Shown here one piece after another: positions 3,484 to 49,478 of a stretch of DNA of 64,000 nucleotides. Below the pieces are notes generated by a model. It searched no databases and had not been told where the DNA came from. It saw nothing but the letters and a program-made list of their open reading frames with translations. The stretch comes from Leucoraja ocellata. Lineage: Eukaryota. The stretch is taken from the NCBI GenBank assembly GCA_036785375.1, contig JAWMAR010000253.1:2418001-2482000 (forward strand). The letters are read 5' to 3'. Made by a program: the position numbers and the translations under genes. Position 1 is the first letter of the stretch; the number at the start of each line of letters is the position of its first letter.

Positions 3484-3598
3484 CTGCCTTCATCGTGGTT
3501 TGGTTTTTTCTTGCAACACATGTAGCCAACGCTAGCTAAGATGATAGCTCCCACCACAATTGCCGCAGTAATCAAGCCAATATGCTGTTGCTTGACAC
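3484..3598 (-). CDS. CD2/SLAM-family receptor, copy A: transmembrane exon
   Basis: Acceptor ccttttcag|GT in phase with the IgC2 exon. HIGLITAAIVVGAIILASVGYMCC followed by the KKK stop-transfer. Donor uncertain (CAG|gtactc, or a GC donor 4 nt earlier). Confidence 0.82.
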
Positions 3599-4263
3599 CT
3601 GAAAAAGGATCAACATTCAACTGTGATTGCATTAGTGCGTTAATGCAGAGAAATATAAAATGTACTTTGCTCAAAAATGAGAAATGCAGCTGAATGCACT
3701 GGTGTGCTGTCTTTTTGTCTATTTTTAGTTATTTTTAGTGTGTTTTAAAAGTATGTATTAATGTTCTCTGGTTTCTTTTATGTGCGGATGAGGGAGGGGG
3801 TCGGGGAAACTTTTTTTTCAGTCTCTTACCTTGCCGGAGATGCGATTGTTTTCCGGATCGTATCTCCGGTCGCTCTGCGGCCTAACATCATGGAGCTGGC
3901 GGCCTTGCTCGAGTGACTTTGACTTTGAGCCCCAACATGGGGCCATGGACTTACCATCGGAGCCTGTGATCCCTTGTGTGGAGGAGCATCGAGGAGCTCG
4001 CAGTCTCGGGTAGAGACTGATGTCGAGAAGCTCCAAAGTCACAAGAGGGTTGACCAGCGGGTAAGCTGAGATCCCCCCCCCGATGTGGGAGCTCGATCAC
4101 CCTGACACGGAGTGCCCGACCACTGGTTATGGGAGCCAAGATCGCCCCGACAACGGAAGTCTTAAGGCCCCCTGACCACAATAGAACAAAGAAGGGAAGA
4201 GAATTAATTCATTTTTCGTCTTCCATCACAGTGAGGAATGTGGAGGAGTCACTGTGGTGGATG

Positions 4264-5285
4264 TAGGTATGTTGCAAAACCTACCTTGAGCGGGGCTGCA
4301 CGTCTGTCCCAGCCCGTGTGCGTGATTTTGGCGCCGTTGAGAGGGGGGCGGGTTTAAAACGCGATTCTCCCTAGGCTATTCAAATCGAGGTTGTTTAGCC
4401 TACTTAGTTGCTGACAAAAAAATCGCTGGGAGATTCTTTCGCTGGAGCTATTTTTAAACATAATTGGTTAATTTAATTGTTATAGTAGGTTAAAAATTAT
4501 CCTCTAAACCCGATAACGGAACGGATCTCATACAGGGGACAACGGAAGGTAGTTTGTTTATTTTTACATTAAAAAGCGCTTCTTAAGATCCCTTTATACA
4601 AAATGTTATGTTGCGAATAGCCCCATTAAATCCCGCAGTATTTTTCTGGGCATATGGGGGTACAAATTTACCGCAATGGGAACGTTCCAAACCAGCTAGT
4701 TCCACAGGATCCCACTCAAAAGCTGATTTAAATGGCCATTAATTTACAGCAATTGAACACTAAATTCCTTCCACTTGGCCTATAAACCATTGTAAATTAG
4801 ATTTAAAAATCATGTTTTATTGTGAATTCTTTGTGAATGTTATTTGGACACTTAGGCTATTTAAAAATGTTAATCTTTTCTTAAGAAATGGATAGATGTT
4901 TAGATCTAGTAATTGAAGTTCGGAATTAGCTACAATTGGGTAACTAACTAATTATATGCTTTAATTTCAGGTCATCCAAGTAAGATTGTTTCATATTTGT
5001 TTCAGAATGCTTCAAACTATAATAACTGAAAACTTCTTTCAATTCTCTTAATTTTTAAGAAAGTTATGGCCATTTGACTGTCCTCGATCACAGCTTTTGT
5101 GTTGTCAATGGAAAATCAATAGGGAACAAGATGCTAATTTCAGAGTATGAAAACTGCCATAACTTTTTTAATACTGAAGATATGAAAGTGAATTAGGTGT
5201 CAAATTAAACTTATTTTTGTGCTTTATCTGATGGGATAAATTGCAGACTTGATTTTTAAAGTCTCAAAATTTTGTAACATTGCTG
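4264..5285. mobile_element. Non-autonomous hAT-like DNA transposon (mirror copy 47666-48696)
   Basis: Imperfect TIRs TAGGTATGTTGCAAAA / TAGCAATGTTACAAAA; 7-bp duplication CATCCAC clean in the right-arm copy; splits an interspersed repeat seen unsplit at ~16195-16350. Confidence 0.8.
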
Positions 5286-7194
5286 TTGGATGTTTATGTT
5301 AAGATGTGTTTTGTTGCTTTTTATTTATATGACTCTATGGCAAATCAAATTCCTCATTTGTTGCAAAACATGCTTGGCTGATAAAGTATGATTATTATGA
5401 TAATGAAATTTGATGACAGAAACTGTTCTTAAGGAGACCTGCAAGATCAAGATTGCAGCCTGAAGGGTCCCCACACTAAAAGTCACCTATCTATGTTTTA
5501 CAGGGATGCTGCCTGACCCGCTGGGTTTAGTTTAGTTTAGACATACAGCGGGGAAACAGGCCCTTCGACCCAATGAGTCCGTACTGACCAGCGACCCCCC
5601 GCACACTAACGCTATCCCACACACAAGTTACAATTGTACCAAGCCAATTAACCTACAAACCAGTGCGTCTTTGGAACGTGGGGGGAAACCGGAGATCCTG
5701 GAGAAAACGCACTCAGGTCACAGGGAGAACATACAAACTGTGTACAGATAAGCACCCGTAGTCAGGATCGAACCTGGGGCTGTGAGGCAGCAACTCTGCT
5801 GCTAGGCCACCGTGCCAACCATCCAGCACTTTGTATCTTTCTTTGTAAACCAGAATCTGCAGCTCTTTGCTTCGACATTTTGTCTGTCAAATTATAACTG
5901 GTTTAAACAGTGTATTGAATAATTCCATATCAAAGATTCGGCAAATCTGTCCCTTCACTGTTTTTATTTGTGATTATTTTTACTAATTCACCCTCCGGCT
6001 GAATAAATCCAAAAGAAAATTTAATTTAGACTTTACATTGGACTTTAGACATACAGCATGGAAACAGGCCTTTTGGCCCACCAAACCTGTGCCAAGCAGC
6101 AATCACCGCATACACTATCACGATCCTACACACTAGGGACAATTTACAATTAACTTAAAGCCATTTAACCTATAAACTTGCACGTCTTGGGAGGAAACCA
6201 GATCACCCAAAGAAAACTCATGCGGTCACAGTGAGAACGTGCAAACTCCATACAGACAGCACTGTAGTCAGGATTGAATCCGGCTCTCTGGCGCTGTAAG
6301 GCAGCAACTCTACCGCTGCGCCACTGTGCTGCCCTCTGTGTCCTCTTAGTTAATTTCACGAGAGTTTTTTTGTTCAAGTTAGAGGCAAGCGGAATAAACA
6401 TTCTGCATTTGAAGGTGGAAAAGTCAGTTGGCGAATTACAGAGATATTATTTCAACCCCAGCTCTGAACTCGGGAAATGATAAAGTCACTAATTTGAAAG
6501 CATACGGTAAAAAGCAGTTCTTGATAAGGGAAACTGTCCTGCAAGCTAGTGTGACAGATTCTCATTACCAGATCTCTGAGTCTGATTGTGATATAGCCAA
6601 TCCAGTGTCACCAACAATTCACCCTTCACAGAAGCAAGACTAGGGATCGCTGGTCGATACGGACACAGTGGGCCGAAGGGCCTTTTCCGTGCTGTATCTC
6701 TAAACTAAATTAAATTAAAAAGCTATTAGTTCCAAATGTTAATCATTTGGTACAAAAAAAAGTTCTCTCCCATCACTTGTGCCTTCTGCCCAGTATCTAT
6801 CCTCTAGCCCTGGAAACATCTGCCAATGAAATAATCATGATGAATGCTGCCGACATTTTGCACAGTGGCATCAAATATTCAGTGCTCTTCCCAACACTTT
6901 TTGAGCTTCATATACATTGGTGTAGTTTAGTTTAGAGATACAGCACGGAAACAAGCCCTTCGGTGCACTGAGTCTGAGCCAACCAATAATCTCCGTACAC
7001 TATCACTATCCTACACTCCAGGGACAATTTACAATTTTTACTGAAGCAAAATTAACCTACAACCCTGTTCATCTTTACAGTATGAGAGGAAACTAGAGTA
7101 CCCGCGGAAAAGATACACGGTCACGGAGCAAACGTACAAACTCCGTACAGACAATACTCGTAGTCAGGACCGAACCTGAGCCACTGAGCACTAG

Positions 7195-7907
7195 TACCTC
7201 TCTCACACCTCCCGCTGCTGAAACTCATCCATGCCTTCATCTCCTCCCGACTGGACTACTGCAACGCACTTCTCCTTGGCATCAGCTCCACCTACATCAA
7301 CCAAATCCAACTGGTCCAGAACGCAGCCGCCCGACTCATCACCCACACCAAATCCTGGCATCACATCACTCCAGTCCTCAAACAACTTCACTGGCTTCCC
7401 ATCTCCCACCGGATCACCTACAAAATCCTGGTCCTCACCTACAAAGCCCTCCACCATATGCCCCCCCCCATATCTCACTGATCTCCTCTCCCCCTACCAA
7501 CCCTCACAGTCCCTCAGAACCACATCAGCCGGTCTCCTCTCCATCCACAAATCCAACCTCCGCAGTTTTGGGGACAGAGCCTTCTCCAGGGCAGCTCCCA
7601 GGCTCTGGAACTCCCTCCCCCAACTGATCCGCAATTCCGTGTCCCTCACCATCTTCCAGTCCCGCCTCAAGACCCATCTCTTCACCTCTGCCTATCCTTA
7701 GCCCCACGTCCCCCTCCCTTTTCATCTGTGCTTTAATTGCCTCATATTGTGTTTTGAATTGAATTCCGTCTTTACTTTGTGTACTAGTCATGTCTCTACT
7801 ATTTATTTCATTCCGCTTACATGTTTTTCCTCTACCTGCTAAATTTTTGTAAGGTGTCCTTGAGACTCTTGAAAGGCGCCCATAAATAAAATTTATTATT
7901 ATTATTA
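7195..7907 (+). mobile_element. L2-clade LINE 3' fragment, left-arm specific
   Basis: LIHAFISSRLDYCN...VQNAAARL...LHWLP...GDRAFS.AAPRLWNSLP; (ATT)n tail. Confidence 0.92.
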
Positions 7908-9629
7908 CAGGTGCACAACCTTTTATCCGAAAGCCTTGGGACCAGACACTTTTCGTAATTCAGAATTTTTCGGCTTTCGGAATGGAAGATTTTTAGCGTA
8001 GATTTTAACGGCTGGCTCAGTGGTAGAGTGCTCGGCTCGTATCCGCAAGGTCGCAAGTTTGCGCCTTGATCCCGGCAGTTACTCGGTCGCGAGTTTGAGT
8101 CTTCAATGTAGATTTTTCTTGCAGAATAGGAGAGAATAGGGAGGGTTAGGCTGGGATCATTCTCTGCGAGATGATCTTAGTGCGGGAGACAAGTGTAGGA
8201 GAGGTGTACTGACTGTGTGGGCAGAACTTTGGAAGTGATTGCCCACCATTCTCAAAAGCCGCTGCGTCTCCCTGTCCCTCCAACTCCAGAGGAATCCGCT
8301 CCCCGTTGGGCCGCTACGGCGACAAGTGGCAGTTCGCCCACAGCCCGAGCTGCGCCCCCTCATCCGCAACCCGGGTTCCTCTGGAGTTGGAGCGGGGCTG
8401 GGCTAGAGTTGTTGCTGGCTGTGAGTCTCTGGGATCTCCGTGTTTGCAGTGGGCCTGGCGGTCGGTGTCCCGATGAGGGGGCGTAGCTGGCTGTGAGTCT
8501 CTGGGATCTCCGTGCTTGCAGTGGGCCTGGGGGTCGGTGTCCCGATGAGGGGGCGCAGCTCGGGCTGTGGGCGAACTGCCACTTGTCGCTGTAGCGGCGC
8601 ATCGGGGAGCGGCTTCTGGTGGTCCTGACGTCTCTCAGCTCCTGTCCAGGGGGGTGGCCGGAGACGTCAGGACCAACAAGAACCCGCTCCCCGATGGGCC
8701 GCTACAGCGACAAGTGGCAGTTCGCCCACAGCCCGAGCTGCACCCTCTCATCCGCAAACCGGGTTCCTCTGGAGTTGGAGCGGGGCTGGGCTAGAGTTGC
8801 TGCTGGCTGTGAGTCTATGGGATCTCCGTGCTTGCAGTCGGTGTCCCGTTGGTCCTGACGTCTCCGGTCACCCCCCTGGAATGGAGCTGAGACTGGGAAC
8901 TGTACCGCCCTTGCCCCCTCCCTCTGCAACTGCAAACAACCCCACAGTTCCCAGTCTCAGCTCCTGTACAGGGGGGTGGCCGGAGACGTCACAGCCCGAG
9001 CCATCAGCTTCTGTCCCTACGGGGACAGCGGAGAGCGTGTTCCTCTGGAATTGGAACGGGGCTGGGCTGCTGCTGGCTGTGGGTCTCTGGGATCTCCGTG
9101 CTTGCAGTGGGCCTGGGGGTCGGTGTCCCGTTGGTCCTGACGTCTCCGGTGACTGGCACTGGCTCCAACGTGAAGACAGTGCAAAGCCCCCGCGCCGGTG
9201 CAATGCGCGGGGAGCTGGAGAGGGGAGGGAAGGGGTCACACACATGGCCGGGGAGCAGAGGGGTATAGGTGGGGTGAAACTGAAGGGAGCGACAATTTGC
9301 TGCTGCCTGCCCGCTGAGTTAAAAAGTTCCCACGCAAGACTCACGATACACTGTGTATCGTGAGTCTACCGTGGGAACTTTTTAACTCAGCGGGCAGGCA
9401 GCAGCAGATTGTCAATTATTAACCCTCCCGCGCAATATACCCTCACCTTCTCTTCTATGAATGGGGATTTAGTTCCCCTTTCTTCGAGGACCGACCGGAG
9501 GTTCCGCTGTCACCTCTGCGGGCCGCCCTCGGTGAACATTTTCAAGGACCTTTCTTCAAGGACTGAAAAAATGTCCGCTATTCGGAGGTTTTCGTTATTT
9601 GGATCTTCGGATAAAAGGTTGTGCACCTG
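7908..9629. mobile_element. Non-autonomous Tc1/mariner-type DNA element nested in the L2 tail
   Basis: TIR CAGGTGCACAACCTTTTATCCGAA at both ends, TA target duplication, no transposase; GC-rich internal repeats at 8260-9160. Confidence 0.85.
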
Positions 9630-10040
9630 TATTATTAAGGCAACAACTCTTCTACTGTGGCACCAAACCACCCTGGTTGCACCAGGTTGTGAGAACCAGT
9701 TTAATTAAACATTCATCAATGGTACAATCAAGAGAGAACGGTGGTAGAGAGAGATTTCCTCAAATATAAATAGTAATTCTAGTGACATCAGTGTTATTAA
9801 ACTTGAATGATTCCCGTCCCTTACAGCCAAACACTGACTAATACACAGATAGGATCAGTTGGAATGAAACAGCAAAGGAAACATTGTAGGTTTACACTCA
9901 AAACTTCACATTCCTGTAAACCATTGATCTATTTATGACCTGACCTGATCTATCGGGAGTTTGACTTGGAAAGAAAGGAAATTAAAAGCCTTGACTGTTA
10001 CTGAATAGTGTGCTTAGTGTGAAAAGATAAAGCCACAAAC

Positions 10041-10331
10041 CTTCATGGGCAGGACAGAGCTGTGTTAGATCCACGCTCCGCGTCTCCTCACTAACAGGGT
10101 TCCCCACGGTGCAGTTGTACACGCTGTTGTTGTTGGGTAGAGGTATGGAGAGTGCCAGCCTTCTCCCTTCATCAGTCAGTATGTGCGACCCATCTGCCGT
10201 GACCTTGCCATCTCCTGACCACCAAGTGTAGACTGGCCCGGTGCCGTGCTCCAGTGAACACACCAAGCTAACGTTACACACCCCGTCACTGAAGGCTTCA
10301 CTGATACTTATTACTGGTAATGACACTCGTT
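10041..10331 (-). CDS. CD2/SLAM-family receptor, copy A: IgC2 exon (291 nt, phase 1-1)
   Basis: Acceptor aaacag|AA, donor GAAG|gtttgt. (Y)ERVSLP...CNVSLVC...YTW...YNCTVGNPVS...C: four-cysteine C2 domain with the NPVS motif typical of the SLAM family. Confidence 0.92.
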
Positions 10332-10961
10332 CTGTTTCAGAGAAAAGCACAAATACAAGCCATGGAATAATAACAACCAGAAGCTGCTAGCCATGAGTTT
10401 CCCCACAAGAACATTAAGTGTAGAAGATTATTTAGTTTAGTTTAGAGATACTGCATGGAAACAAGCCCTTCGGCCCACCGAGTCCTTGCCCACCATCGAT
10501 CCCCGTACACTAACACTATCCCACACCCACTACGGACAATTCACAAACTCTGTACAGACAAGCACCTGTAGTTTTAGTGCAAAATCCTTCCCGTGAGTTT
10601 ACAAAAATGAATCGTCCAGGTTACACTTTGCCACTAAATCTAGATCACAAGTAAACTCATTATTAGCAGAGAAAGTTTAATGACAGGTGGCCCTATCATC
10701 TTACAGAAACGTCAGATGGCTTGGAGAGACCTCCCTTCAAGAACCCATCCTAATGCTCTGCCATTAATATTCAAACAGCAAATACTGGGGATGGGTTCCT
10801 AAATAAGCAAGGACTCCAACCCATGTGATGTTTCAGTATTCACCCTGCCCGTATAACCCACAGACTTGGACTCACATTGTAAGCATTTCCCCATACATCT
10901 TTATGTTCTTAAAGGTTGTTAGAGTGGAAAATGTACCGTTTATAAAATTGAAATAGATTAC

Positions 10962-11291
10962 CATAAATCTTCAGTTCTGTCACTTGTTCATGGGGCCCCT
11001 GATTTGTCCTGATGCCCATTTCATATAGACCTTGATCGTGTTCTGTTAATTTCTGTATTTCCAGACTACAGTCATTCCGGTTTAACCTGATTCCCTGTTT
11101 GCTATATTGTATTGGATTGTTTTGAGATGTTATACATAATTGAATCTTTCCTGTTGTTGGTGAACTGCGGTAATCCCAAGTGAGGATTGTAATGTTTTCT
11201 CCTGAGATACATCCTGGTAACGTGACTGACTGTCCCATTGTCCCATTCACCAAGCGACGAGTGCCTGGTTTCCCTGCAGTCTGTCCCAGAC
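10962..11291 (-). CDS. CD2/SLAM-family receptor, copy A: IgV exon (330 nt, phase 1-1)
   Basis: Acceptor tgtttcag|GT, donor TATG|gtaatc. Protein LVNGTMGQSVTLP...W...CSLEIQKL...DQGLYEM: V-set domain without the canonical B-F cysteine pair, as in CD2/SLAM membrane-distal domains. Confidence 0.9.
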
Positions 11292-12176
11292 CTGAAACAC
11301 AAGGACAAGATATTAGTGCCATCAGCTCTGGGGTGTTGGTGTTCATAGTTTCCCAGCCCAGCAGTGAGTTGTCCCAACCCTAATGGACAAGGGCAGCAGG
11401 CACATGAGTATTCCACCACCCATACAGATGAGGTTCTGAATGAATAATCTTAGAAATCTAGAAATTAGGTGCAGGAGTAGGCCATTCGGCCCTTCGAGCC
11501 AGCATCGTAATTCAATATAATCAAGGCTGATCATCCAGAATCAGAATCCAGAATCTCAACATGAAATGTCACCCATTCCTTCCCTCCAGGGATGCTGCCT
11601 ATCCTGCTGAGTTACTCCAGCAGTTTGTGTCTATCTTCGGTTTAAACCAGCATCTGCAGTTCCCTCCTACATCTTTAGACTTTAGGGATATAGCGTTGAA
11701 ACAAGCCCTTCTGCCCACCGAGTCCATGCCAACCAGCAATCATGCCATAGACTTGCACTATCCTACACACTAGGGACAATTTACCTAAAGACACATCTCT
11801 GGCGTGTGAGAGGAAACTGAAGCACTCGGAGAAGACTCACATGGTCAAAGGAAGAACGTACAAACTCTGTACAGGGAATCAACATTTCTGGCATTGTGAG
11901 ACAGCAGCTCTAACACTGTGCCCGATTTGCCTAGACGGGGAATAACATGTGAAAAGTACAGATGGGTGCTTGATGAGTCAGCATGGACTTGTTCGGTCAA
12001 CTGGCCTGTTTCCAAACTGCGTGACACTATAAGGAAGAATTGCCACGGTGGTTTCTTGAGTAAACACCCTCAATGAATAGACATTGACTTATGCAGTAAA
12101 ACTGCTCCAGATGCCGAAACACTCAGCAGGGAGAGGGATAATAAGAATGTAGTCGTACAGGTACAAAACAGGCCTT

Positions 12177-12830
12177 TAGAAAACATAGACATAGAAAACA
12201 TAGGAAATAGGTGCAGGAGGAGACCATTTGGCCCTTCACTCACTGTGATCATGGCTGATCATCCACAATCAATAACCCGTGCCTGCCTTCTCCCCATATC
12301 CCTTAATTCTGCCAACCCCTAGCGCTTTATCTAACTCTCTTTAAATTCATCCAGTGATTTGGCCTCTAAGAGAATTCCGCAGATTCACAAATCTCTCAGT
12401 GAAAAAGTTTTTTCTAATCTCAGTTTTAAACTGCCTCCGCTTTATTCCTAGACTGTGGCCCCTGGTTCTGGTCTCCGCCAACATTGGGAACATTTTTCCT
12501 GCATCTAGCTTGTCCAGTCCTTTTATAATTTTACATGTTTCTATAAGATTACCTCTCATCCTTCTAGATTCCAGTGAATACAAGCCCAGTCTTTCCAATC
12601 TTTCCTCATATGACAGTCCCGCCATCCCGGGGATTAACCTCGTGAACCTACGCTGCACTACCTCAATAGCAATGATGTCCTTCCTCAAATGAGGAGACCA
12701 AAACTGTACACAATACTCCAGGTGTGGTCCCATCAGGGCCCTGTACAATTGCACAAGGACCTCTTTACTCCAATATACAAATTCTCTCGTTGTGAAGGCC
12801 AACATGCCATTAGCTTTCTTCACTGCAACC
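12177..12830 (-). mobile_element. CR1 3' fragment (mirror at ~38490-39140)
   Basis: PHLEYCVQFWSP...RTRGHS motifs. Confidence 0.9.
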
Positions 12831-13133
12831 CTTAGGTCCAACTCATCCATGCCGATCAAGATACCGCATCTAAGCCAGTTCCCTTGGCCCATGTCGATAG
12901 AGTTATAGAGTGATACAGCGTGGAAACAGGACCTTCGACCAACTTGCCCACACCGGCCAGCGTGCCCCAGCTGCATTAGTTCCATCTGCCCGCGTTTGGC
13001 CTGTATACCTTCAAGTGTCTTTTAAATATTGTTAATAGTACCTGCCTCCTCTGGCAGCTCATTCCATCCACCCTCCACCTTCTGAGTGACAATATTGCTT
13101 GTGATGCACCTATTAAATCTTTCCCCTCTCTCC

Positions 13134-17532: not shown

Positions 17533-17604
17533 CTGGAAATTATAGATACATTTGGGCAGCACAGTGGCGCAGTTGCTGCCAGAGGCCCGGGTTCAATCTT
17601 GGGC

Positions 17605-36185: not shown

Positions 36186-38185
36186 GGGATAGTATCAAAG
36201 CGAAGGATGATGAGTACAATTAGCCAGAAAAAGCAGCATACCGGAGGACTGGGAGAATTCAAAGACAAGCAGAGGAGGACAAAGGGCTTAATTAGGAAAG
36301 GGAAAATAGATTACGAAGAAAACTGGCAGGGAACATAAAAACTGACTGCAAAAGTTTTTATAGATATGTGAAAAGAAAGAGATTAGTTAAACAAATGTAG
36401 GTCCACTTGCAGTCAGAACAGGTGAGTTGATCATGGGGAACAAGGATATTGGCGGACCAATTGAATAACTACTTTGGTTCCGTCTTCACTAAGGAAGACA
36501 TAAATAATTTGCCGGAAATAGCAGGGGACCGCGGGTCAAAGGAGTTGGAGGAATTGAGTGAAATCCAGGTTAGCCGTGAAGGGTGTTGGGTAAATTGAAT
36601 GGATTAAAGGCCGATAAATCCCCAGGGCCAGATAGGCTGCATCCCAGAGTACGTAAGGAAGTAGCTCCAGAAATAGTGGATGCATTAGTAATAATCTTTC
36701 AAAACTCTTTAGATTCTGGACTAGTTCCTGAAGATTGGTGGTAGCAAACGTAACCCCACACTTTTTAAGAAGGGAGGGAGAGAGAAAACGGGGAATTACA
36801 GACCAGTTAGTCTAAAATCGGTAGTGGGGAAACTGCTAGAGGCAGTTATTAAAGATGGGATAGCAGCACATTTGGAAAGTGGTGAAATCATTGGACAGAG
36901 GCAGCATGGATTTACGAAAGGTAAATCATGTCTGACGAATCTTATAGAATTTTTCGAGGATGTAACTAGTAGCGTGGATAGGGGATAAGCAGTGGATGTG
37001 GTGTATCTGGACTTCCAGACGACAAGTTCCCACATAAGAAATTAGTATACAAACTTAAAGTACACGGCATTGGGGGTTCAGTATTGATGTGGATAGAGAA
37101 CTGGCTGGCAAACAGGAAGCAAAGAGTAGGAGTTAACGGGTCCTTTTCACAATGGCAGGCAGTGACTAGTGGGGTACCGCAAGGCTCAGTGCTGGGACCC
37201 CAGCTATTTACAATATATATTAATGATCTGGATGAGGGAATTGAAGGCAATATCTCCAAGTTTGCGGATAACACTAAGCTGGGGGGCAGTGTTAGCTGTG
37301 AGGAGGATGCTAGGAGACTGCAAGGTGACTTGGATAGGCTGGGTGAGTGGGCAAATGTTTGGCAGATGCAGTATAATGTGGATAAATGTGAGGTTATCCA
37401 TTTTGGTGGCAAAAACAGGAAGGCAGACTATTATCTAAATGGTGGCCGACTAGGAAAAGGGGAGATGCAGCGAGACCTGGGTGTCATGGTACACCAGTCA
37501 TTGAAAGTAGGCATGCAGGTGCAGCAGGCAGTGAAGAAAGCGAATGGTATGTTAGCTTTCATAGCAAAAGGATTTGAGTATAGGAGCAGAGAGGTTCTAC
37601 TGCAGTTGTACAGGGTCTTGGTGAGACCGCACCTGGAGTATTGCGTACAGTTTTGGTCTCCAAATCTGAGGAAGGACATTATTGCCATAGAGGGAGTGCA
37701 GAGAAGGTTCACCAGACTGATTCCTGGGATGTCAGGACTGTCTTATGAAGAAAGACTGGATAGACTTGGTTTATACTCTCTAGAATTTAGGAGATTGAGA
37801 AGGGATCTTATAGAAACTTACAAAATTCTTAAGGGGTTGGACAGGCTAGATGCAGGAAGATTGCTCCCGATGTTGGGGAAGTCCAGGACAAGGGGTCACA
37901 GCTTAAGGATAAGGGGGAAATCCTTTAAAACCGAGATGAGAAGAACTTTTTTCACACAGAGAGTGGTGAATCTCTGGAACTCTCTGCCGCAGAGGGTAGT
38001 CGAGGCCAGTTCATTGGCTATATTTAAGAGGGAGTTAGATGTGGCCCTTGTGGCTAAGGGGATCAGAGGGTATGGAGAGAAGGCAGGTACGGGATACTGA
38101 GTTGGATGATCATATTGAATGGCGGTGCAGGCTCGAAGGGCCGAATGGCCTACTCCTGCACCTAATTTCTATGTTTCTATGTTTC
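36186..38185 (+). mobile_element. CR1 LINE, mirror copy of the 13134-15143 element
   Basis: 338-aa RT/C-terminal ORF 37084-38100; same 3' flank as the left-arm copy. Confidence 0.95.
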
Positions 38186-40030
38186 TAAGGAGAGAGGGGA
38201 AAGATTTAATAGGTGCATCACAAGCAATATTGTCACTCAGAAGGTGGAGGGTGTATGGAATGAGCTGCCAGAGGAGGCAGGTACTATTAACATTATTTAA
38301 AAGACACTTGGAGGTATACAGGCCAAACACGGGCAGATGGAACTAATGCAGCTGGGGCACGCTGGCCAGTGTGGGCAAGTTGGTCGAAGGTCCTGTTTCC
38401 ACGCTGTATCACTCTATAACTCTATCGACATGGGCCAAGGGAACTGGCTTAGATGCGGTATCTTGATCAGCATGGATGAGTTGGACCTAAGGGTTGCAGT
38501 GAAGAAAGCTAATGGCATGTTGGCCTTCACAACGAGAGGATTTGTATATTGGAGTAAAGAGGTCCTTGTGCAATTGCACAGGGCCCTGATGGGACCACAT
38601 CTGGAGTATTGTGTACAGTTTTGGTCTCCTCATTTGAGGAAGGACATCATTGCTATTGAGGTAGTGCAGCGTAGGTTCACGAGGTTAATCCCCGGGATGG
38701 CGGGACTGTCATATGAGGAAAGATTGGAAAGACTGGGCTTGTATTCACTGGAATCTAGAAGGATGAGAGGTAATCTTATAGAAACATGTAAAATTATAAA
38801 AGGACTGGACAAGCTAGATGCAGGAAAAATGTTCCCAATGTTGGCGGAGACCAGAACCAGGGGCCACAGTCTAGGAATAAAGTGGAGGCAGTTTAAAACT
38901 GAGATGAGAAAAAACGTTTTCACTGAGAGATTTGTGAATCTGAGGAATTCTCTTAGAGGCCAAATCACTGGATGAATTTAAAGAGAGTTAGATAGAGCGC
39001 TAGGGGTTGGCGGAATTAAGGGATATGGGGAGAAGGCAGGCACGGGTTATTGATTGTGGATGATCAGCCATGATCACAGTGAGTGAAGGGCCAAATGGTC
39101 TCCTCCTGCACCTATTTCCTATGTTTTCTATGTCTATGTTTTCTAAAGGCCTGTTTTGTACCTGTACGACTACATTCTTATTATCCCTCTCCCTGCTTAG
39201 TGTTTTGGCATCTGGAGCAGTTTTACTGCATAAGTCAATGTCTATTCATTGAGGGTGTTTACTCAAGAAACCACTGTGGCCCTTCCTCATTATAGTGGCA
39301 CGCAGTTTGGAAACAGGCCAGTTGACCGAACAAGTCCATGCTGACTCATCAAGCACCCATCTGTACTTTTCACATGTTATTCCCTGTCTAGGCAAATCGG
39401 GCACAGTGTTAGAGCTGCTGTCTCACAATGCCAGAAATGTTGATTCCCTGTACAGAGTTTGTACGTTCTTCCTTTGACCATGTGAGTCTTCTCCAAGTGC
39501 TTCAGTTTCCTCTCACACGCCAGAGATGTGTCTTTAGGTAAATTGTCCCTAGTGTGTAGGATAGTGCAAGTCTATGGCATGATTGCTGGTTGGCATGGAC
39601 TCGGTGGGCAGAAGGGCTTGTTTCTACGCTATATCCCTAAAGTCTAAAGATGTAGGAGGGAACTGCAGATGCTGGTTTAAACCAAAGATAGACACAAACT
39701 GCTGGAGTAACTCAGCAGGACAGGCAGCATCCCTGGAGGGAAGGAATGGGTGACATTTCATGTCGAGATTCTGGATTCTGATTCTGGATGATCAGCCTTG
39801 ATTATATTGAATTACGATGCTGGCTCGAAGGGCCGAATGGCCTACTCCTGCACCTAATTTCTATGTTTCTAAGATTATTCATTCAGAGCCTCATCTGTAT
39901 GGGTGGTGGAATACTCATGTGCCTGCTGCCCTTGTCCATTGGGGTTGGGATAACTCACTGCTGGGCTGGGAAGCTATGGACACCAACACCCCAGAGCTGA
40001 TGGCACTAATATCTTGTCCTTGTGTTTCAG

Positions 40031-40360
40031 GTCTGGGACAGACTGCTGGGAAACCAGGCACTCATCGCTTGGTGAATGGGACACTGGGACAGTCAGTCAC
40101 GTTACCAGGATATATGTCGAGAGAAAACATTTCAATCCTCACTTGGGATTATCGCAGTTCACCAACAACAGGAAAGATTCAATTATGTGCGAAAACTCAA
40201 AACAGTCCAATACAATATAATACACAGGGAATCAGGTTAAACCTGAAGGACTGTAGTCTGGAAATACAGAAATTAACAGAACACGATCAAGGTCTCTATG
40301 AAATGAACTTCAGGACGAATCGAGCTGTCGATGAACAAGTGACAGAACTGAAGATTTATG
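40031..40360 (+). CDS. CD2/SLAM-family receptor, copy B: IgV exon (330 nt)
   Basis: Same splice sites as copy A, open frame, 20 of 110 residues differ from copy A (hand alignment). Confidence 0.9.
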
Positions 40361-40709
40361 GTAATCTATTTCAATTTTATAAACGGTACATTTTCCAATC
40401 TAACAACCTTTAAGAACATAAAGATGTATGGGGAGATGCTTACGATGTGAGTCCAAGTGTGTGGGTTATACGGGCAGGGTGAATACTGAAACATTACATG
40501 GGTTGGAGTCCTTGCTTATTTAGGAACCCATCCTCAGTATTTGCTGTTTGAATATTAATGGTGGAGCACTAGGATGGGTTCTTGAATGGAGGTCTCTCCA
40601 AGCCATCTGACTTCCCTGTAAGATGATAGGGGCCACAGGCATTAAACTTTCTCTGCTAATAACGAGTTTACTTGTGATCTAGTTTTGGTGGCAAAGTGTA
40701 ACCTGGACT

Positions 40710-40750
40710 ATCCAAAAATGGAATCAAATCCCTTGCCGATTACCAGAAAG

Positions 40751-40781
<31 letters not shown>

Positions 40782-42430
40782 AGACAACGCCTCCCTGACG
40801 AGCTAAACCATTTCTATGCTCGTATTGACCAGGACAACAAAACTCCAGCCATCAAAGTTGCTCCACCCCCGAATGAACAACCCCTCAGTCTCTCCACCTC
40901 TGCTGTACAAGATGCACTGAGCAAGGTGAATGAGCACAAAGCTGCCGGCCCCAATGGCATCCCCGGGCGGGTGCTCAGGGCATGTGCTGGACAACTATCC
41001 CTGGTCTTCACTGACATTTTCAATCTGTCACTGGCCCAGGGCGTTGTCCCCACTTGCCTCAAGACATCAACCATTGTGCCAGTGCCCAAACAATCAGCTA
41101 CAGGGAGTCTCAATGACTTCCGCCGAGTGGCACTCACCCTTGTCATTGCTCAGTGCTTTGAGCGGCTGATCTTGGCTCACCTCAAAGCCAGCTTCCCCCC
41201 CACACTGGACCCCCATCGGTTTGCCTACCGGACCAACAGGTCTACAGAGGACACCATATCGGCGGCCCTACACTCTGCCCTGACCCACCTGGACAGCAAT
41301 AACACCTACATCAGGTTGCTGTTTATTGATTTCAGCTCTGCCTTTAACACTGTCATCCCCGCCAGCTTGATCACCAAACTCAGCGGACTTGGCATCTCCA
41401 CCTCCCTCTGCAATTGGACACTGGATTTCCTCACCAACAGACCGCAGTCTGTTAGGATCAACAACCTCACCTCCTCCACTATAACACTGAACACCGGCGT
41501 GCCTCAGGGCTGTGTGCTCAGCCCTCTCCTCTACTCCCTCTTCACCCATGACTGCATCCCTAAGGATGGATCCAACGCCATAATTAAATTTGCCGACGAC
41601 ACCATGGTAGTAGGACTGATCAGTGACAACGACTAGTCAGCCTACAGGGAGGAGGTCCAGCACCTGACAGCCTGGTGTGCCAACAATAACCTCGTCCTCA
41701 ACTCCAAGAAGACGAAGGAAATTATTGTCGACTTCAGGAAGATCAGAGAGGGCAGTCATACCCCCATCCATATAAACGGGACTGAGGTGGAGCGCGTCTC
41801 CAACTACAAATTCCTCGGGGTACACATCTCGGAGGATCTGTCCTGGTCCCTCAACACCTCCAAGCTGATCAAAAAGGCGCAGCAGCGCCTTTACTTCCTG
41901 AGGAGGCTCAAGAAAGCTCGCCTGTCCCCCCCAGATCCTGAACAACTTTTACCGCTGTACCATCGAAAGCATCCTGGCCACCTGCTTCACAGTATGGTAC
42001 AGCAGTTGCACCGTAGCTGACAGGAAGGCACTACAACGGGTGGTGAAAACCGCTCAGTACATCATTGGTGCCCCGCTCCCTGCCATGGATGCCCTCCACC
42101 GAAAACGGTGTCTGAGACAGGCCGGGAAGATCATCAAAGTCCCCTCACACCCCAACCATGGACTGTTTGCCCTCCTCTCATCAGTAAGGCGGTACAGGAG
42201 CCTCAGGTCTCGTACTAGTAGGATGAGGAACAGCTTCTACAACAACACTATCACATTGCTGAACTCGGAGTCCCGCCGATAGATTTCTCCAGTCTCTCCG
42301 TCCACATTGTTTGCTTATTCTGTATTTTTATTTCTATATTGCACTATTACTACGGACTGCCGCTAAACTGCATTTCGTTGTACCCATACTTGTATTTGTG
42401 GAATGACATTAAAGTTGAATTGAATTGAAT
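40710..42430 (+). mobile_element. Rex1/Babar-clade LINE, 5'-truncated, right-arm specific (in the IgV-IgC2 intron)
   Basis: [12 protein letters not shown]...FTDIFNLSL...[11 protein letters not shown]...[10 protein letters not shown]...KFADDT; (TTGAA)n tail; stop at 41634. Confidence 0.9.
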
Positions 42431-42696
42431 TGTAAACTCTCAGGAAGGATTTTGCACTAAAACTACGGGTGTTTGTACAGAGTTTGTAAATTGTCCGTAG
42501 TGTGTAGGATAGTGCTCGTGTGCGGGGATCGCTGGGCGGCGAGGACTCAGTGGGCCAAAGGGCTTGTTTCCATGCAGTATCTCTAAACTAAACTAAAGAA
42601 TCTTCTACGCTTAATGTTCTTGTGGGGAAACTCATGGCTAGCAGCTTCTGGTTGATATTATTCCATGGCTTGTATTTGTGCTTTTCTTTGAAACAG

Positions 42697-42987
42697 AACG
42701 AGTGTCATCACCAGTAATAACTATCAGTGAAGCCTTCACCGAAGGGGTGTGTAACGTTAGCTTGGTGTGTTCACTGGAGCACGGCACCGAGCCAGTGTAC
42801 ACTTGGTGGTCAGGAGATGGCAAGGTCACGGCAGATGGGTCGCACATACTGACTGATGAAGGGAGAAGGCTGGCACTCTCCATACCTCTACCCAACACCA
42901 ACAGCGTGTACAACTGCACCGTGGGGAACCCTGTTAGTGAGGAGACGCGGAGCGTGGATCTAACACAGCTCTGTCCTGCCCATGAAG
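42697..42987 (+). CDS. CD2/SLAM-family receptor, copy B: IgC2 exon (291 nt)
   Basis: aaacag|AACGAGTG ... GAAG|gtttgt; 6 of 97 residues differ from copy A. Confidence 0.92.
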
Positions 42988-43392
42988 GTTTGTGGCTTTA
43001 TCTTTTCATTCTAAGCAAACTATTCAGTGACAATCAAGGTTTTTAATTTCCTTTCTTTCCAAGTCAAACTCCCTATAGATCAGGTCAGGTCATAAATGGA
43101 TCAATGGTTTACAGGAATGTGAAGTCTTGAGTGTAAACCTACAATGTTTCCTTTGCTATTTCATTCCAACTGATCCTATCTGTGAATTAGTCAGTGTTTG
43201 GCTGTAAGGGACGGGAATCATTCAAGTTCAACAACACTGATGTCACTAGAATTACTATTTATATTTGAGGAAATCTCTCTCTACCACCATTATTTCTTGA
43301 TTGTACCATTGATGAATGTTTAATTATACTGGTTCTCACAACCTGGTGCAACCAGGGTGGTTTGGTGGCACAGGGGAAGTGTTGCTGCCTAA

Positions 43393-45768
43393 TAGGCCTT
43401 TCTCACGGGGCGACTTGACGCAACCAGAGTGAAGTGGTCGTGGTCTAGCACGATATCACACGATATAACGGGGGGGGGTAGACAAAGAGTTCCCACGGTA
43501 CTCGGCATTTCTGTTATTTGTGCGAGTGACTTGTCCGTCTCCCGAGCTTTCCCATTAAATCTTGAATGAGCATTGTAAACTGTCAAGTGTAATTAAATCA
43601 TCACGTGGCACAAATGATGTCACTTTTTTTTCACACACTATAAATATCCTCCCTTGGTTGAATTGGCTCATTTGGAGACATGCCTGGGAGGGGGAGAAAG
43701 AGAGAGGTGGGGGAGGGGGAGAAAGAGAGGGGTGGGGGGGAGAGAGAGAAATGAGGGGAGACATATATACACACACAAAGCAGAGTACACAGATGGACTG
43801 AGCACAGTACCTCGGTCTTACTGTGTGTGGGAGAGGGGGAGAAAGAGACGTACACTCACAGAGGCAGAGGGTGGGCGAGGGAGAGGGAGAGAGTGTAAGT
43901 TACCTAAAATTAAATAATTCAATGTTCATAGTGAACACAGACACAAAATGTTGGAGTATCTCAACGGGTCAGGCAACATCTCTAGAGAAAATGCACAGGT
44001 GGCGTTTGTGTCTATCTTCGGTAAAAACCAGCATCCGCAGTTCCTTCCTGCACAATGGATCTCAGTGTCAAGTCTCTGACTCCCGTTGGCAGGCCATTCG
44101 GCCCACAGCCCGCCCAGCGATGACTAACCCATGTCACAGGGGGATGGTGTGAAGGCGGAGTTAGACAGAGCTTGATTAATGTTACGGTTGGGGAATGGGC
44201 CATAATATGGCCAGGGAAACGTTGTTATTCGTGACGCCCCCTCCGCCCTTTCCCAGCTGTTCTCAATCGCACCCCTGGCCACACAAAAATTTATACTTTA
44301 AGAAGGAATACACGGAACATTTAAACTCAGAACGCTTCTAACAGAGTGAGCCATGTGAGCACTTTGATCATTCTCCCTGTATTTGCATTTGACAAAATAG
44401 TCGGAAAAAAATGTTTAAAAGTGTTCATACCTTTTGCTATGCCTAATTGGCCCTTACCTCTGCGAAAATAGTCTGATATTCGTAGGTGAAATGTCACCAA
44501 CAATAATTGATTCTATTATTAATTGACTAATAATTTACTCTATTAGCGGAAAGATGCAATTCTGATCTAATATTATAAGTGCCTCTGTCTTTGGAAGCAA
44601 CACCAGCAATTTATTAAATCTGACTACATGCGGCACAGTGGTAGAGTTGCTGCCTCACAGCCCCAGAGACCGGGGTTCGATCCTGACCATGGGTGCACCG
44701 GTTTCCTCTCACACTCCAGAGATTACAGGTTTGTAAGTTAATCAGCTTCGGTAACATTGTAAAATTGTCCCTGGATTGTATAAGAATAGGTGGTCGGCGC
44801 GGACTCGGTGGGCCGAAGGGCCTGTTTCCGCGCTATATCTCTAAAATCTGAAGTTAGGTAATGTCTAAAGGAACTGCAGATGCTGGTTAATACGCACAAA
44901 AGGACACAAAATGTTGGTGTAACTCAGCAGGTAAGTCAGATCTGGGAAGGAAAACATAAAAAGCTGGAGTAAGTCAGCGGGTCAGGCAGCATCTCTGGAG
45001 AAAAAGAATAGGTGGCGATTCGAATCGGAACCCTCCTTCAGACATCCTAATCGGAATTGAGTCTGAAGATGTGTCTTGTCCCGAAACATCACCTATTTTT
45101 CTCCAGAGATGCTGCTTGACTCGCTGAGTTACTCCAGCTTTTGTGTCTGTCTTCGTTTCAAACCAGCATGTGCAGTTCACTCCTTTACACGGGTCTCTGG
45201 AGAACATTGATTGGTAGCGTTCCGGACACTGCTTCGGAAAGGCATCGATCGCTGGTCGGCGAGGACTCCAAGCTGTATCTCTCAAAGAAGTACATGTGAA
45301 AAATTTCTCACGGACCATAAAAATGCGGGACCTTTCAGTAAAGTCCCTTTTAAAGATTATAGTTATTTTCTTGAATCTCATTAACATAACTCATGCATAA
45401 ATTGATGTCCATATGCGGATGCAAATCTTTATTTTTTTTAATTCAATCCCACAGAAGACAATTTTTCCTCACCTGTCCCCTCTGTCCAGCTTCCGGGTTC
45501 ACCGTTCCCACGGTACACGCAAGAGTTATTACGAATATCGCACCGGCCACTACGTGCATATAATGTTGCAATGTTCAACCACAAGTGTACAAGTCACTCT
45601 TGGAGAAATTCAAGCTTGTTTGAATTTTCTCCCGAGTCACCAAGTTACACGAGTACCTGCCGTTAGTGCCACGGTGGTCCACGAATGCCGTACGGTTATC
45701 GCAAGAGGTTCCCACGATGTTCAACTCTAGTTAACTCTTGCGTCAAGTCGTCCCGTGAGAAAGGGGTT
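43393..45768. mobile_element. PIF/Harbinger-type non-autonomous element, right-arm specific
   Basis: ~30-bp TIR ..CCTTTCTCACGGGRCGACTTGACGCAA, TAA duplication, splits a SINE head. Confidence 0.8.
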
Positions 45769-46617
45769 TAACAGTGCTAGAGACTCGGGTTCGGTCCTGA
45801 CTACGGGTATTGTCTGTACGGAGTTTGTACGTTCACCCCGTGACGTGTATGTGTTTTTCCTGGGTGCTCTGGTAACCGGCAAAGCCTGTTTGTATGTTAA
45901 TTTGGCTTCAGTAAAAATTGTAAATTGTCCCTGGAGTGTAGGATAGCGCTGGTGTACGGAGATTATTGGTCGGCACCGGTGCACCGAAGGGCTTGTTTCC
46001 CGTGCTGTATCTCCAAACTAAACTACACTAATGTATATGAAGCTCAAAAAGTGTTGGGAAGAGCATTGAATATTTTATGCCACTGGGCAAAATGTCAGCA
46101 GCCTTTAAGATGATTTTTCCATTGGCAGACGTTTCCAGGGCTAGAGGATAGATACTGGGCATAAGGCACAAGTGATGGGAGAGAACTTTTTTTGTACCAA
46201 ATGATTATCATTTGGAACTAATAGCTTTTTAATTTAATTTAGTTTAGAGATACAGCACGGAAAAGGCCCTTCGGCCCACTATGTCTGTATCGACCAGCGA
46301 TCCCTAGTCTAACTTCTGAGAAAGGTGAATTGTTGGTGACACTGGATTGGTTATGTCACAGTCAGACTCGGAGATCTGGTAATGAGAATCTGTCACGCTA
46401 GCTTGCAGGACAGTTTCCCTTATCAAGAACTGCTTTTTACTGACTTCATGCTTTCAAATTAGTGATTTTATCATTTCTCGAGTTCAGAGCTGGGGTTGAA
46501 ATAATATCTCTGTAATTCGCCAACTGACTTTTCCACCTTCAAATGCAGAATGTTTATTCCGCTTGCCTTGAACTCGACCAAAATTAGCCACGAGAAATTA
46601 ACTAAGAGGACAAAGAG

Positions 46618-46930
46618 GGCAGCACAGTGGCGCAGCGGTAGAGTTGCTGCCTTATAGCGCCAGAGAGCCGGATTCAATCCTGACTACAGTGCTGTCTGTA
46701 TGGAGTTTGCACGTTCTCACTGTGACCGCATGAGTTTTCTTTGGGTGATCTGGTTTCCTCCCAAGACGTGCAAGTTTATAGGTTAAATGGCTTTAAGTTG
46801 ATTGTAAATTGTCCCTAGTGTGTAGGATAGTGCTAGTGTATGTGGTGATCGCTGATTGGCACAGGTTTGGTGGGCCTAAAGGCCTGTTTCCATGCTGTAT
46901 GTCTAAAGTCCAATGTAAAGTCTAAATTAA
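46618..46930 (+). mobile_element. HE1-type tRNA-derived V-SINE (representative; other copies ~5524-5817, 6030-6333, 6922-7192, 10430-10570, 11675-11925, 16895-17060, 44630-44845, 45772-46025, 47134-47435, 54748-54870, 63155-63925)
   Basis: A box CAGTGGCGCAGCGG, B box GGATTCAATCC, central TTTGCACGTTCTC...GGTTTCCTCCC domain, CR1-like tail GGCCTGTTTCC..GCTGTAT.TCTAAA. Confidence 0.85.
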
Positions 46931-47665
46931 ATTTTCTTTTGGATTTATTCAGCCGGAGTGTGAATTAGTAAAAATAATCTAAATAAAAAACAGTGAAGGG
47001 ACAGATTTGCCGAATCTTTGATATGGAATTGTTCAATACACTGTAAAAACCAGTTATAATCTGACAGACAAAATGTAGAAGCAAAGAGCTGCAGATTCTG
47101 GTTTACAAAGAAAGATACAAAGTGCTGGATGGTTGGCACGGTGGCCTAGCAGCAGAGTTGCTGCCTCACAGCCCCAGAGGCTCAGGTGCGATCCTGACTA
47201 TGGGTGCTTATCTGTACACAGTTTGTATGTTCTCCCTGTGACCTGAGTGCGTTTTCTCCAGGATCTCTGGTTTCCTCCCACATTCCAAATATGCATTGAT
47301 TTGTAGGTTAATTGGCTTGGTATAATTGTAAATTGTGTGGGGGATAGTGTTAGTGTGCAGGGGGTCGCTGGTCAGTACGGACTCATTGGGTCGAAGGGCC
47401 TGTTTCCCCGCTGTATGTCTAAACTAAACTAAACCCAGTGGGTCAGGCAGCATCCCTGTAGAACATAGATAGGTGACTTTTAGTGTGGGGACCCTTCAGG
47501 CTGCAATCTTGATCTTGCAGGTCTCCTTAAGAACAGTTTCTTCATAGTAATCATCATAATCATATTTTATTAGCCAAGTATGTTTTGCAACAAATGAGGA
47601 ATTTGATTTGCCAGAGAGTCATATAAATAAAAAGCAACAAAACACATCTTAACATAAACATCCAC

Positions 47666-48696
47666 TAGCAATGTTACAAAATTTTGAGATTTTAAAAATC
47701 AAGTCTGCAATTTATCCCATCAGATAAAGCACAAAAATAAGTTTAATTTGACACCAAATTCACTTTCATATCTTCAGTATTAAAACAGTTATGGCCATTT
47801 TCATACTCGGAAATTAGCATCTTGTTCCCTATTGATTTTCCATTGACTTAACACAAAAGCTGTGATCGAGGACAGTCAAATGGCCATAACTTTCTTAAAA
47901 ATTGAGAATTGAAAGGAAATGTCAGTTATTATAGATTGAAGCATTCTGAAACAAATATGAAACAATCTTACTTGGATGACCTGAAATTAAAACATATATT
48001 TAGTTAGTTACCCAATTGTAGCTAATTCCAAACTTCAATTACTAGATCTAAACATCTATCCATTTCTTAAGAAAAGATTAACATTTTTAAATAGCCTAAG
48101 TGTCCAAATAACAATCACAAAGAATTCACAATAAAACATGATTTTTAAATCTAATTTACATTAATTTATAGGCCAAGTGGAAGGAATTTAGTGTTCAATT
48201 GCTGTAAATTAATGGCCATTTAAATCAGCTTTCGAGTGGGATCCTGTGGAATTCGCTGGTTTGGAACGTTCCCATTGCGGTAGATTTGTAGCCCCATATG
48301 CCCAGAAAAATACTGCGGGATTTAATGGGGCTATTCGCAACATAAAATTTTGTATAAAGGGATCTTAAGAAGCCCTTTTTAATGTAAAAATAAACAAACT
48401 ACCTTCCGTTGTCCCCGGTATGAGATCCATCCCGTTGTCGGCGGTCGCTGGTTTAGAGGATAATTTTTAACCTACTATAACAATTAAATTAACCAATTAT
48501 GTTTAAAAATAGCTCCAGTGAAAGAATCTCCCAGCGATTTTTTTGTCAGCAACTAAGTAGGCTAAACAACCTAGATTTGAATAGCCTAGGGAGAATCTCG
48601 TTTTAAACCCGCCCCCCTCTCAACGGCGCCAAAATCACGCACACGGGCTGGGACAGATCTGCAGCCCCGCTCAAGGTAGGTTTTGCAACATACCTA
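47666..48696. mobile_element. Non-autonomous hAT-like DNA transposon, right-arm copy
   Basis: As for 4264-5285. Confidence 0.8.
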
Positions 48697-49354
48697 CATC
48701 CACCACAGTGACTCCTCCACATTCCTCACTGTGATTGAAGACGAAAAATGAATTAATTCTCTTCCCTTCTTTGTTCTATTGTGGTCGGGGGGCCTTAAGA
48801 CTTCCGTTGTCGGGGCGATCTTGGCTCCCATAACCAGTGGTTGGGCACTCCGTGTCGGGTGATCGAGCTCCCACATCGGGGGGGATCTCAGCTTACCCGC
48901 TGGTCAACCCTCTTATGACTTTGGAGCTTCCCGACATCAGACTCTACCCGGGACTGCGAGCTCCTCGATGCTCCTCCACACAAGGGATCACAGGCTCCGA
49001 TGGTAAGTCCACGGCCCCGCGTTGGGGCTCAAAGTCAAAGTCACTCGAGCAAGGCCGCCAGCTCCATGATGTTGGGCCGCAGAGCGACCGGAGATACGAT
49101 CCGGAAAACAATCGCATCTCCGGCAAGGTAAGAGACTGAAAAAATGTTTCCCCCGACACCCTCCCTCATCCGCACATAAAACAAACCAGAGAACACACAT
49201 ACTTTGAAAACACACTAAAAATAACAAATGAAAGATGAAAAGACGGCACACCAGTGCATTCAGCTGCATTTCTCATTTTTGAGCAAAGTACATTTTATAT
49301 TTCTCTGCATTAACGCACTAATGCAATCACAGTTGAATGTTGATCCTTTTTCAG

Positions 49355-49478
49355 GTGTCCAGCAACAGCAAGCACTCCATATTGGCTTGATTACTGCGGC
49401 AATTGTGGTGGGAGCTATCATCTTAGCTAGCATTGGCTGCATGTATTACAAGAAAAAACCAAACCACGATGAAGGCAG
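49355..49478 (+). CDS. CD2/SLAM-family receptor, copy B: transmembrane exon
   Basis: tttcag|GTGTCCAG; GVQQQQALHIGLITAAIVVGAIILASIGCMYYKKKPNHDEG; 9-nt in-frame indel relative to copy A. Confidence 0.82.

Follow-up and report, generated by a model that had tools for sequence, protein, structure and literature searches.

The 64,000-nucleotide stretch of Leucoraja ocellata DNA analysed here (contig JAWMAR010000253.1, positions 2,418,001 to 2,482,000; hereinafter the window) contains two copies of a SLAM-family receptor gene, on opposite strands in mirror-image arms. The copy pair is real but incomplete and spans an assembly gap. As a duplication it is ordinary, and its main interest is a cytoplasmic tail encoded in two frames of the last exon. 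The first-pass annotation, which ended the feature at 3484..49478, left this exon outside; exons located by tblastn with homologs carry the right gene on as far as 56,866 or beyond. The two arms are probably paralogs. On balance we also favour the fuller reading, that they are paralogs of a multi-copy skate SLAM-family gene and that the predicted signalling of the right copy uses either of two tails, TIYDEI or YVNW, exchanged by a splice shift.

The exons of the two copies are as follows (TM, transmembrane; ITSM, immunoreceptor tyrosine-based switch motif).

10962..11291, minus strand: left IgV exon, with Cys27, Cys52 and Cys74 and no F-strand Cys (translation; Pfam V-set, 1.5e-8; splice sites)
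10041..10331, minus strand: left IgC2 exon, with four Cys and NPVS (translation, splice sites)
3484..3598, minus strand: left TM exon, with tandem donors GC (3488) and GT (3484), 9 nt shorter than in the right copy (splice sites)
3169..3209, minus strand: left optional cytoplasmic exon, 41 nt, same as in the right copy (exon type in RefSeq isoform P0034)
878..909, minus strand: left homologue of the short-tail exon, without an acceptor AG (arm comparison)
40031..40360, plus strand: right IgV exon, with Tyr at position 27 (translation, Pfam)
42697..42987, plus strand: right IgC2 exon (translation, splice sites)
49355..49478, plus strand: right TM exon, with a GC donor after 49474 and a GT donor after 49478, a GYNNGY site (splice sites)
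49649..49689, plus strand: right optional cytoplasmic exon, 41 nt (arm comparison)
51099..51130, plus strand: right short terminal coding exon, giving a tail without a Tyr motif (16 of 17 residues equal to the RefSeq-type tail P0029)
52174..52247, plus strand: right cytoplasmic exon 1, with PLYAVI (tblastn with homologs)
56702..56866, plus strand: right last coding exon, dual frame, with the ITSM TIYDEI at 56762-56779 and DIYVNW at 56703-56720, stop at 56778-56780 (tblastn, translation)

In both arms the V (330 nt), C2 (291 nt) and TM exons follow AG acceptors, join in phase 1 and are open in frame, so that translation, acceptors and junctions confirm the two intact IgV-IgC2-TM exon sets proposed from the first inspection. 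The V domain matches Pfam V-set and has Cys 27, 52 and 74 in the left copy and Cys 52 and 74 in the right, with no Cys in strand F (87-95). The C2 domain of both copies has Cys 18, 24, 73 and 92 and NPVS, and the four Cys are invariant across 37 homologs. The mirror positions of the right exons at 52 kb and 56 kb fall beyond the left window edge, and the left last exon lies outside the window. Codon 27 of the right V exon (40109-40111) encodes Tyr; in 15 of 15 other skate V rows this residue is Cys. Both Cys27 and Cys74 occur specifically in skates, while rays and sharks carry the Cys pair 52/62.

The TM exon ends in GC and GT donors 4 bases apart, identical between the arms. In the right copy, the GC donor followed by exon 52,174-52,247 and the last exon gives an 86-residue ITSM tail, with 84 of 86 residues identical to the RefSeq-type isoform P0025. 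The GT donor, 4 nt downstream and joined directly to the last exon, gives a 34-residue YVN tail identical to P0026 at 34 of 34 residues. TIYDEI in the longer tail fits the ITSM consensus TxYxxV/I/L given in PMC3958483. The second-frame motif, YVNW or YINW, is present in RefSeq isoforms of six species, comprising skates including Amblyraja and Rhinoraja, together with Pristis, Scyliorhinus torazame and Callorhinchus. Combining both reading frames in four lineages gives the implied third bases of the codons, which are invariant at 4 of 4 positions under YVNW and at 0 of 6 under the ITSM (Fisher p=0.005), or at 5 of 6 versus 0 of 6 when the two preceding codons are added (p=0.015). The base that creates the second-frame stop is also invariant.

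These data suggest that, from chimaera to skates, the last exon of a SLAM receptor may have been selected in two frames, with the GC/GT donor switching one ectodomain between an ITSM tail that would bind SAP or phosphatases and a YVNW tail of Grb2 type. Skates may further have expanded the gene into a cluster whose converted ectodomains differ in their V faces and sit on different tails, amounting to a paired-receptor system. We propose this tentatively and rate it somewhat below even. Weighing against it, the third-base test is post hoc, the two-frame isoforms are gene-model predictions, and the fixed third bases lie near the acceptor. RNA runs of relatives, at less than 2x depth on the exon bins, gave no exon-exon joint among the matches listed, and PMC4267661 describes splicing at GYNNGY sites in human and mouse as mostly noise.

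Several of these points also favour an alternative with close to an even chance of being correct, namely that the second frame is splicing noise at the GYNNGY donor and that its conservation stems from splice-enhancer constraint near the acceptor or from CpG decay. The fixed bases all lie within ~20 nt of the acceptor, and the R/H/C variation in the main frame would also be expected from CpG decay. Noise explains less readily why the isoform type is predicted in six species across chimaera, shark, sawfish and skates, why the Ile codon forming the second-frame stop is invariant too, and why 22 of 22 ITSM-frame proteins fit Y[VI]NW, a count that includes isoforms and is not independent. In addition, because the second frame terminates within the last coding exon, the transcript would not be expected to decay.

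If the right copy does produce both tails, the phosphorylated ITSM of the 86-residue tail would recruit SAP/EAT-2 or the SHP/SHIP phosphatases, by analogy with mammalian SLAM biology, and the 34-residue YVN tail would recruit Grb2-type adaptors. The pYxN motif is a ligand of the Grb2 SH2 domain. By the same analogy, the ligand of the V domain would be either a second molecule of the same receptor or a sister receptor, on lymphocytes.

Two further features of the tail were observed. At the start of the last exon (56690-56703), RefSeq isoforms imply two acceptors 6 nt apart; in the right copy the upstream one is apparently absent and the downstream one is intact. The context of the first tail tyrosine varies: it is TLYAVI, an ITSM, in Rhinoraja P0038; VLYAVI or VQYAVI, an immunoreceptor tyrosine-based inhibitory motif, in most rays and several sharks; and PLYAVI, which is neither, in the window (52174-52247), other Leucoraja and Amblyraja. 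No description of a skate SLAM-like cluster or of a two-frame tail was found in the literature searched.

The arms, the gap between them and a proviral remnant at the end of the left arm (LTR, long terminal repeat) have the following positions.

1..18725, minus strand: left mirror arm, running off the window edge (collinear inverted BLAST blocks)
34275..51899, plus strand: right mirror arm (collinear inverted BLAST blocks)
30234..30433, unstranded: assembly gap of 200 N, within the non-homologous spacer 18,726-34,274 between the arms (sequence and self-comparison)
18725..23083, plus strand: endogenous retrovirus remnant at the end of the left arm, with LTRs at 18725-19254 and 22554-23083 (Pfam rve, MLVIN_C)

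Self-BLAST of the window returned nine collinear inverted blocks that pair 1-18,725 with 51,899-34,275 (main blocks E 0.0, well outside chance) and run from 1-706/51,899-51,205 at the outside to 17,452-18,725/35,545-34,275 at the inside. The mirror, described as a ~52-kb inverted duplication with ~18-kb arms, is therefore real. Its dimensions need revision: the left arm touches base 1, so the mirror exceeds the window edge and 52 kb is a minimum for the duplicated unit, and ~12.8 kb of the ~18 kb per arm aligns. Aligned globally, the blocks show 462 substitutions over 12,831 columns (3.6%), and ~8 large indels separate the arms. Divergence is patchy along the arms, from 1.2% to 9.8%, with 1.2% in the innermost block and 5.1% around C2. 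CR1 fragments are the sole sequence common to the spacer halves flanking the gap. Because of this gap, the adjacency and orientation of the arms are not proven by continuous sequence. The two genes do lie on opposite strands, as a head-to-head pair would; the join between them crosses the gap, and both copies are without a first exon in the assembly.

Homologs carry a signal peptide, whereas the window offers TM exons and an unsequenced gap between the copies, and each copy is a partial gene within the window. The distinct N-terminal leaders of 33 skate homolog records, compared with the window, gave no match above shuffled background except two, one being an open-reading-frame call that reads through the intron at the V-exon acceptor and the other a tandem V-C2 repeat. 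An ab initio scan for a signal-peptide exon between the copies gave repeat-derived candidates only. The distance from V acceptor to gap is 18.9 kb on the left and 9.6 kb on the right. The first exons may lie in the gap or have been lost, on the left perhaps via recombination between two provirus LTRs.

The provirus, which the first inspection overlooked, marks the left-arm boundary. Its ~530-nt LTRs differ at 19 of 523 positions (3.6%), compared with 15 of 1265 in the adjacent arm block (p=0.001). The internal part is 3.3 kb long, is without most of gag/pol and has a broken integrase frame at 21389-21391. A polypurine tract is present, and 3' of the first LTR there is a primer-binding-site-like stretch, which we take to be tRNA-Leu-like. 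The LTR flanks do not match, that is, there is no target-site duplication. The left arm stops at the first LTR, where a CR1 element is interrupted, and this element does not resume past the second LTR. The LTRs may come from two recombined insertions, or the inner arm block may have been recently converted.

One version of the paralog reading holds that the left copy is a 5'-truncated relic, whose promoter and first exon were deleted by LTR-LTR recombination between two proviruses. It can hold alongside the reading favoured above for the right copy. The arm end exactly at the first LTR, the CR1 that never resumes, the unmatched flanks, the excess of LTR divergence over the neighbouring block, the lack of a leader in the 18.9 kb upstream and the loss of the short-exon acceptor on the left all speak for it. 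We nevertheless consider it rather unlikely, since on the left the reading frames and splice sites of V, C2 and TM are undamaged and the V domain retains Cys27, the leader may sit in the gap, and recent conversion of the inner block equally accounts for the LTR contrast.

The arms could also be a false heterotype duplication, in which two diverged alleles of a single polymorphic SLAM locus were placed mirror-wise around the gap during scaffolding. A gap between two diverged copies is the form such errors take, and 10.1101/2020.05.22.110833 describes the error type as common and skate assemblies as gap-rich. In the window a gap does separate the copies, divergence is at its minimum of 1.2% near the gap (p=9e-10), and two other samples are without the right-arm letters at many sites, all of which weigh against paralogy. 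The overall arm difference, 3.6% with ~8 large indels, lies above the heterozygosity of 0.1-1.6% reported for Vertebrate Genomes Project genomes in the same source. In addition, 3-5% divergence and many transposable-element indels extend from the V exon as far as the window edge, a distance of more than 10 kb, the halves of the spacer are not homologous to each other, relatives carry several copies of one tail type, and one close sample holds at least three sequence types. The haplotig alternative is thereby weakened, and we regard it as improbable.

The sequence types come from four runs of other samples, none clearly from the source animal (best share 0.59), compared with 39,880-52,500, in which repeats dominated; the assembled contigs carry no copy number. 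Among the matches listed for sample X1, a close relative, one contig is right-like, with 2 differences in 425 nt across which the arms differ by 14, and another shows no difference from the right arm in 135 nt. The same matches contain three sequence types at 46,350-46,351 and a third type of V flank, 19 letters off the right arm in a stretch where the two arms are 5 letters apart. Of 16 unique sites examined, 14 have the left-arm base as the alternative letter. The types in X1 support several loci in this close relative, without proving that the window arms are separate loci.

Consistent with paralogy, sequences and accession runs indicate three distinct ectodomains in Leucoraja erinacea, four in Amblyraja radiata and five in Rhinoraja longicauda. 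A second copy is thus ordinary, because related skates each carry 3-5 close copies. The proposal of a recent lineage-specific duplication holds insofar as both copies fall in a skate-only clade (100/100); the event is not an isolated one, given the near-identical ectodomains of related skates and the patchy divergence. That patchiness fits the expectation under conversion among several copies. In the ectodomain tree the five Rhinoraja copies cluster (100/99) despite differing tails, which points to concerted evolution or repeated recent duplication. At this locus, copies would arise and be partly homogenised by conversion, with the V exons staying distinct.

In related skates, homologs P0007, P0014, P0016 and P0036 carry near-identical ectodomains on other TM and tail types. 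These include a short tail with no Tyr and a longer, unrelated one with Arg where the TM segment begins; in Amblyraja, a V-C2 unit is repeated in tandem. Ectodomains on different tails resemble the pattern of paired receptors.

The V exon differs between the copies at 32 of 327 nt, threefold the rest of the arms (p=3e-7), and the encoded residues differ at 20 of 109 positions in V and 6 of 96 in C2. The ratio of nonsynonymous to synonymous rates (dN/dS) for the V exon is 0.81, and silent sites contribute to the excess. Exchange of older V lineages through conversion accounts for it as well as selection does, and positive selection is not demonstrated. The V differences lean to the BC loop, C'-C'' and F-G regions, a borderline and post hoc tendency that would concentrate V-exon diversity at the locus on the predicted binding face.

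Protein search with the C2 exon gave nine matches, all from skates, eight of them named SLAM-like, at 84-97% identity; their clusters comprise the 33 skate homolog records. A profile built from ten of these homologs retrieved 38 proteins, 37 chondrichthyan (including one Logan record) and one wallaby SLAMF9, and a representative protein library search added a chimaera member. The top PDB sequence match is SLAMF6 (2.1e-5 for the V exon, 3.2e-13 and 1.1e-26 for profiles), with CEA second. Foldseek with a two-domain AlphaFold model of the Logan homolog P0032, whose ectodomain confidence (predicted local distance difference test) is mostly 76-97, ranks SLAMF6 first and CD2 second; VIA-align of the homolog model leaves CD48/CD2, B7-H6, JAML and SLAMF6 tied. 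A V-only model ranks nectin-1 first. Therefore the fold by itself is not decisive, and it is the ITSM that decides the SLAM placement. The ITSM is present in the tails of at least 14 of 41 homolog rows, a lower bound in view of three unparsed tails and many rows that are short isoforms. In the ectodomain tree of 38 rows, from which Heterodontus2 was left out, 14 of 14 skate rows including both window copies form the skate-only clade.

These searches bear out the earlier assignment of a V domain without the B-F disulfide and a four-Cys, NPVS-bearing C2 domain to the CD2/SLAM architecture, with Pfam, Cys positions, SLAMF6 matches and the ITSM in agreement, and the skate-only matches and clade support its cartilaginous-fish origin. 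Judged by its predicted products, the gene is supported as a skate member of the SLAM branch, with an ITSM tail, rather than of CD2/CD58, and it displays those structural features of a SLAM receptor that could be tested. RefSeq automatically annotates this lineage as SLAM-like in skates, rays, sharks and chimaera, and the pair is a further member of a known family. A CD2/CD58-type adhesion molecule or CEACAM-like receptor is very improbable: CEA/CEACAM1 and CD2 do stand directly under SLAMF6 in the sequence and fold searches, but SLAMF6 is the top match with an alignment spanning both domains, a consensus ITSM is conserved in the tail from skate to chimaera, and the ten next-nearest proteins that carry names comprise nine SLAM/CD48/Ly9-like ones and a single HEPACAM2-like one. 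CD2 has a long, proline-rich tail, unlike the tail here.

The remaining features are transposable elements (LINE and SINE, long and short interspersed elements; MITE, miniature inverted-repeat transposable element).

13134..15741, minus strand: CR1-type LINE common to both arms; the right counterpart, 36184-38188, is truncated and joined to an inverted piece, 35546-36183
1149..1775, unstranded: left-only insertion of a CR1 3' fragment (arm comparison)
2540..2762, unstranded: left-only MITE-like palindromic insertion (self-alignment, terminal inverted repeats)
7193..9632, unstranded: left-only insert of a LINE fragment and a 1.7-kb element with terminal inverted repeats and TA flanks, Tc1-like (arm comparison)
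15145..17451, unstranded: left-only segment without a right-arm counterpart (arm comparison)
40715..42429, plus strand: right-only LINE with a reverse transcriptase, in the V-C2 intron (Pfam RVT_1)
43395..45772, unstranded: right-only element with ~30-nt terminal inverted repeats, at the alignment position of the left 7193-9632 insert (arm comparison)

The arm-specific insertions listed in the first-pass annotation are present on the sides it gave: the Tc1-like, Harbinger-like and MITE-like elements each end in terminal inverted repeats, and Pfam finds the reverse transcriptase of the Rex1-like insert. The class names are presumptive, including L2 for the LINE fragment in 7193-9632, Rex1-like for 40715-42429 and Harbinger-like for 43395-45772. 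The inserts at 7193-9632 and 43395-45772 are different elements that entered one shared SINE at an identical TTA/TAA point, apparently as independent insertions. In the right arm, the inverted CR1 3' piece at 35546-36183 replaces the left segment 15145-17451. A young CR1-type LINE at 26819-29690 (minus strand) has an 873-residue open frame with endonuclease and reverse transcriptase by Pfam and is 96% identical to the arm-shared CR1. A GC-rich insert inside a SINE at 63160-63660, with short tandem and inverted repeats, is probably a DNA transposon. No neighbouring host gene was identified within the 64,000-base window.

The closest known genes are the SLAM-like genes of Leucoraja erinacea (XP_055522183-193, XP_055520626-628), Amblyraja radiata (XP_032903545-551, 632-634) and Rhinoraja longicauda (XP_078272144-149, 516-520), whose name, signaling lymphocytic activation molecule-like, is automatic annotation. 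All three sets resemble the window genes in exon set, TM type and tails, being 77-88% identical in V and 84-98% in C2 with nearly identical tail isoforms. They differ in that no close V match exists among them (best 88% for the right copy and 85% for the left), the right V is without Cys27, and the window is without the first exon. Further out, at 36-60% identity to the skate homolog, Pristis, Mobula, Hypanus, Heptranchias, Scyliorhinus and Callorhinchus (XP_007908711-713) share the V-C2-TM layout and the TIYDEI ITSM; Pristis, S. torazame and Callorhinchus also share the second-frame isoform.

Human SLAMF6 (NTB-A), CD84 and SLAMF1 share the IgV without the B-F disulfide, the four-Cys C2 and the ITSM consensus, at ~22-25% identity to the window gene, which has one ITSM. 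CD2, CD58 and CD48 have the same two-domain fold (VIA-align root-mean-square deviation 1.9-2.8 Å over 165-175 residues); to our knowledge none has an ITSM tail, and CD48, unlike the window gene, has no cytoplasmic tail. Isoforms such as Ly108-1/-2 exist among mammalian SLAM receptors, and our searches turned up no two-frame last exon among them. A functional parallel is SLAMF3 (Ly9/CD229), which PMC5882332 presents as the mammalian SLAM receptor that binds Grb2 alongside SAP-binding tyrosines. SLAMF3 has four Ig domains and carries both kinds of site in one tail, whereas here the motifs would lie in mutually exclusive frames of one exon. Accounts of shark lymphocytes include an sh2d1a-like gene in T cells (PMC11372145) and a Slamf6-named gene marking T-follicular-helper-like cells in nurse shark (PMC10529500), which may or may not be the present gene.

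The copy pair itself adds little, as SLAM-like genes are auto-annotated in several skate copies; it mainly flags a gap hiding the first exons. Should both frames be in use, a single exon would encode two signalling modules that exclude each other, an arrangement conserved in cartilaginous fishes as a whole. Such a two-frame tail, if true, would provide a handle on SAP-dependent lymphocyte help in the oldest vertebrates with adaptive immunity.

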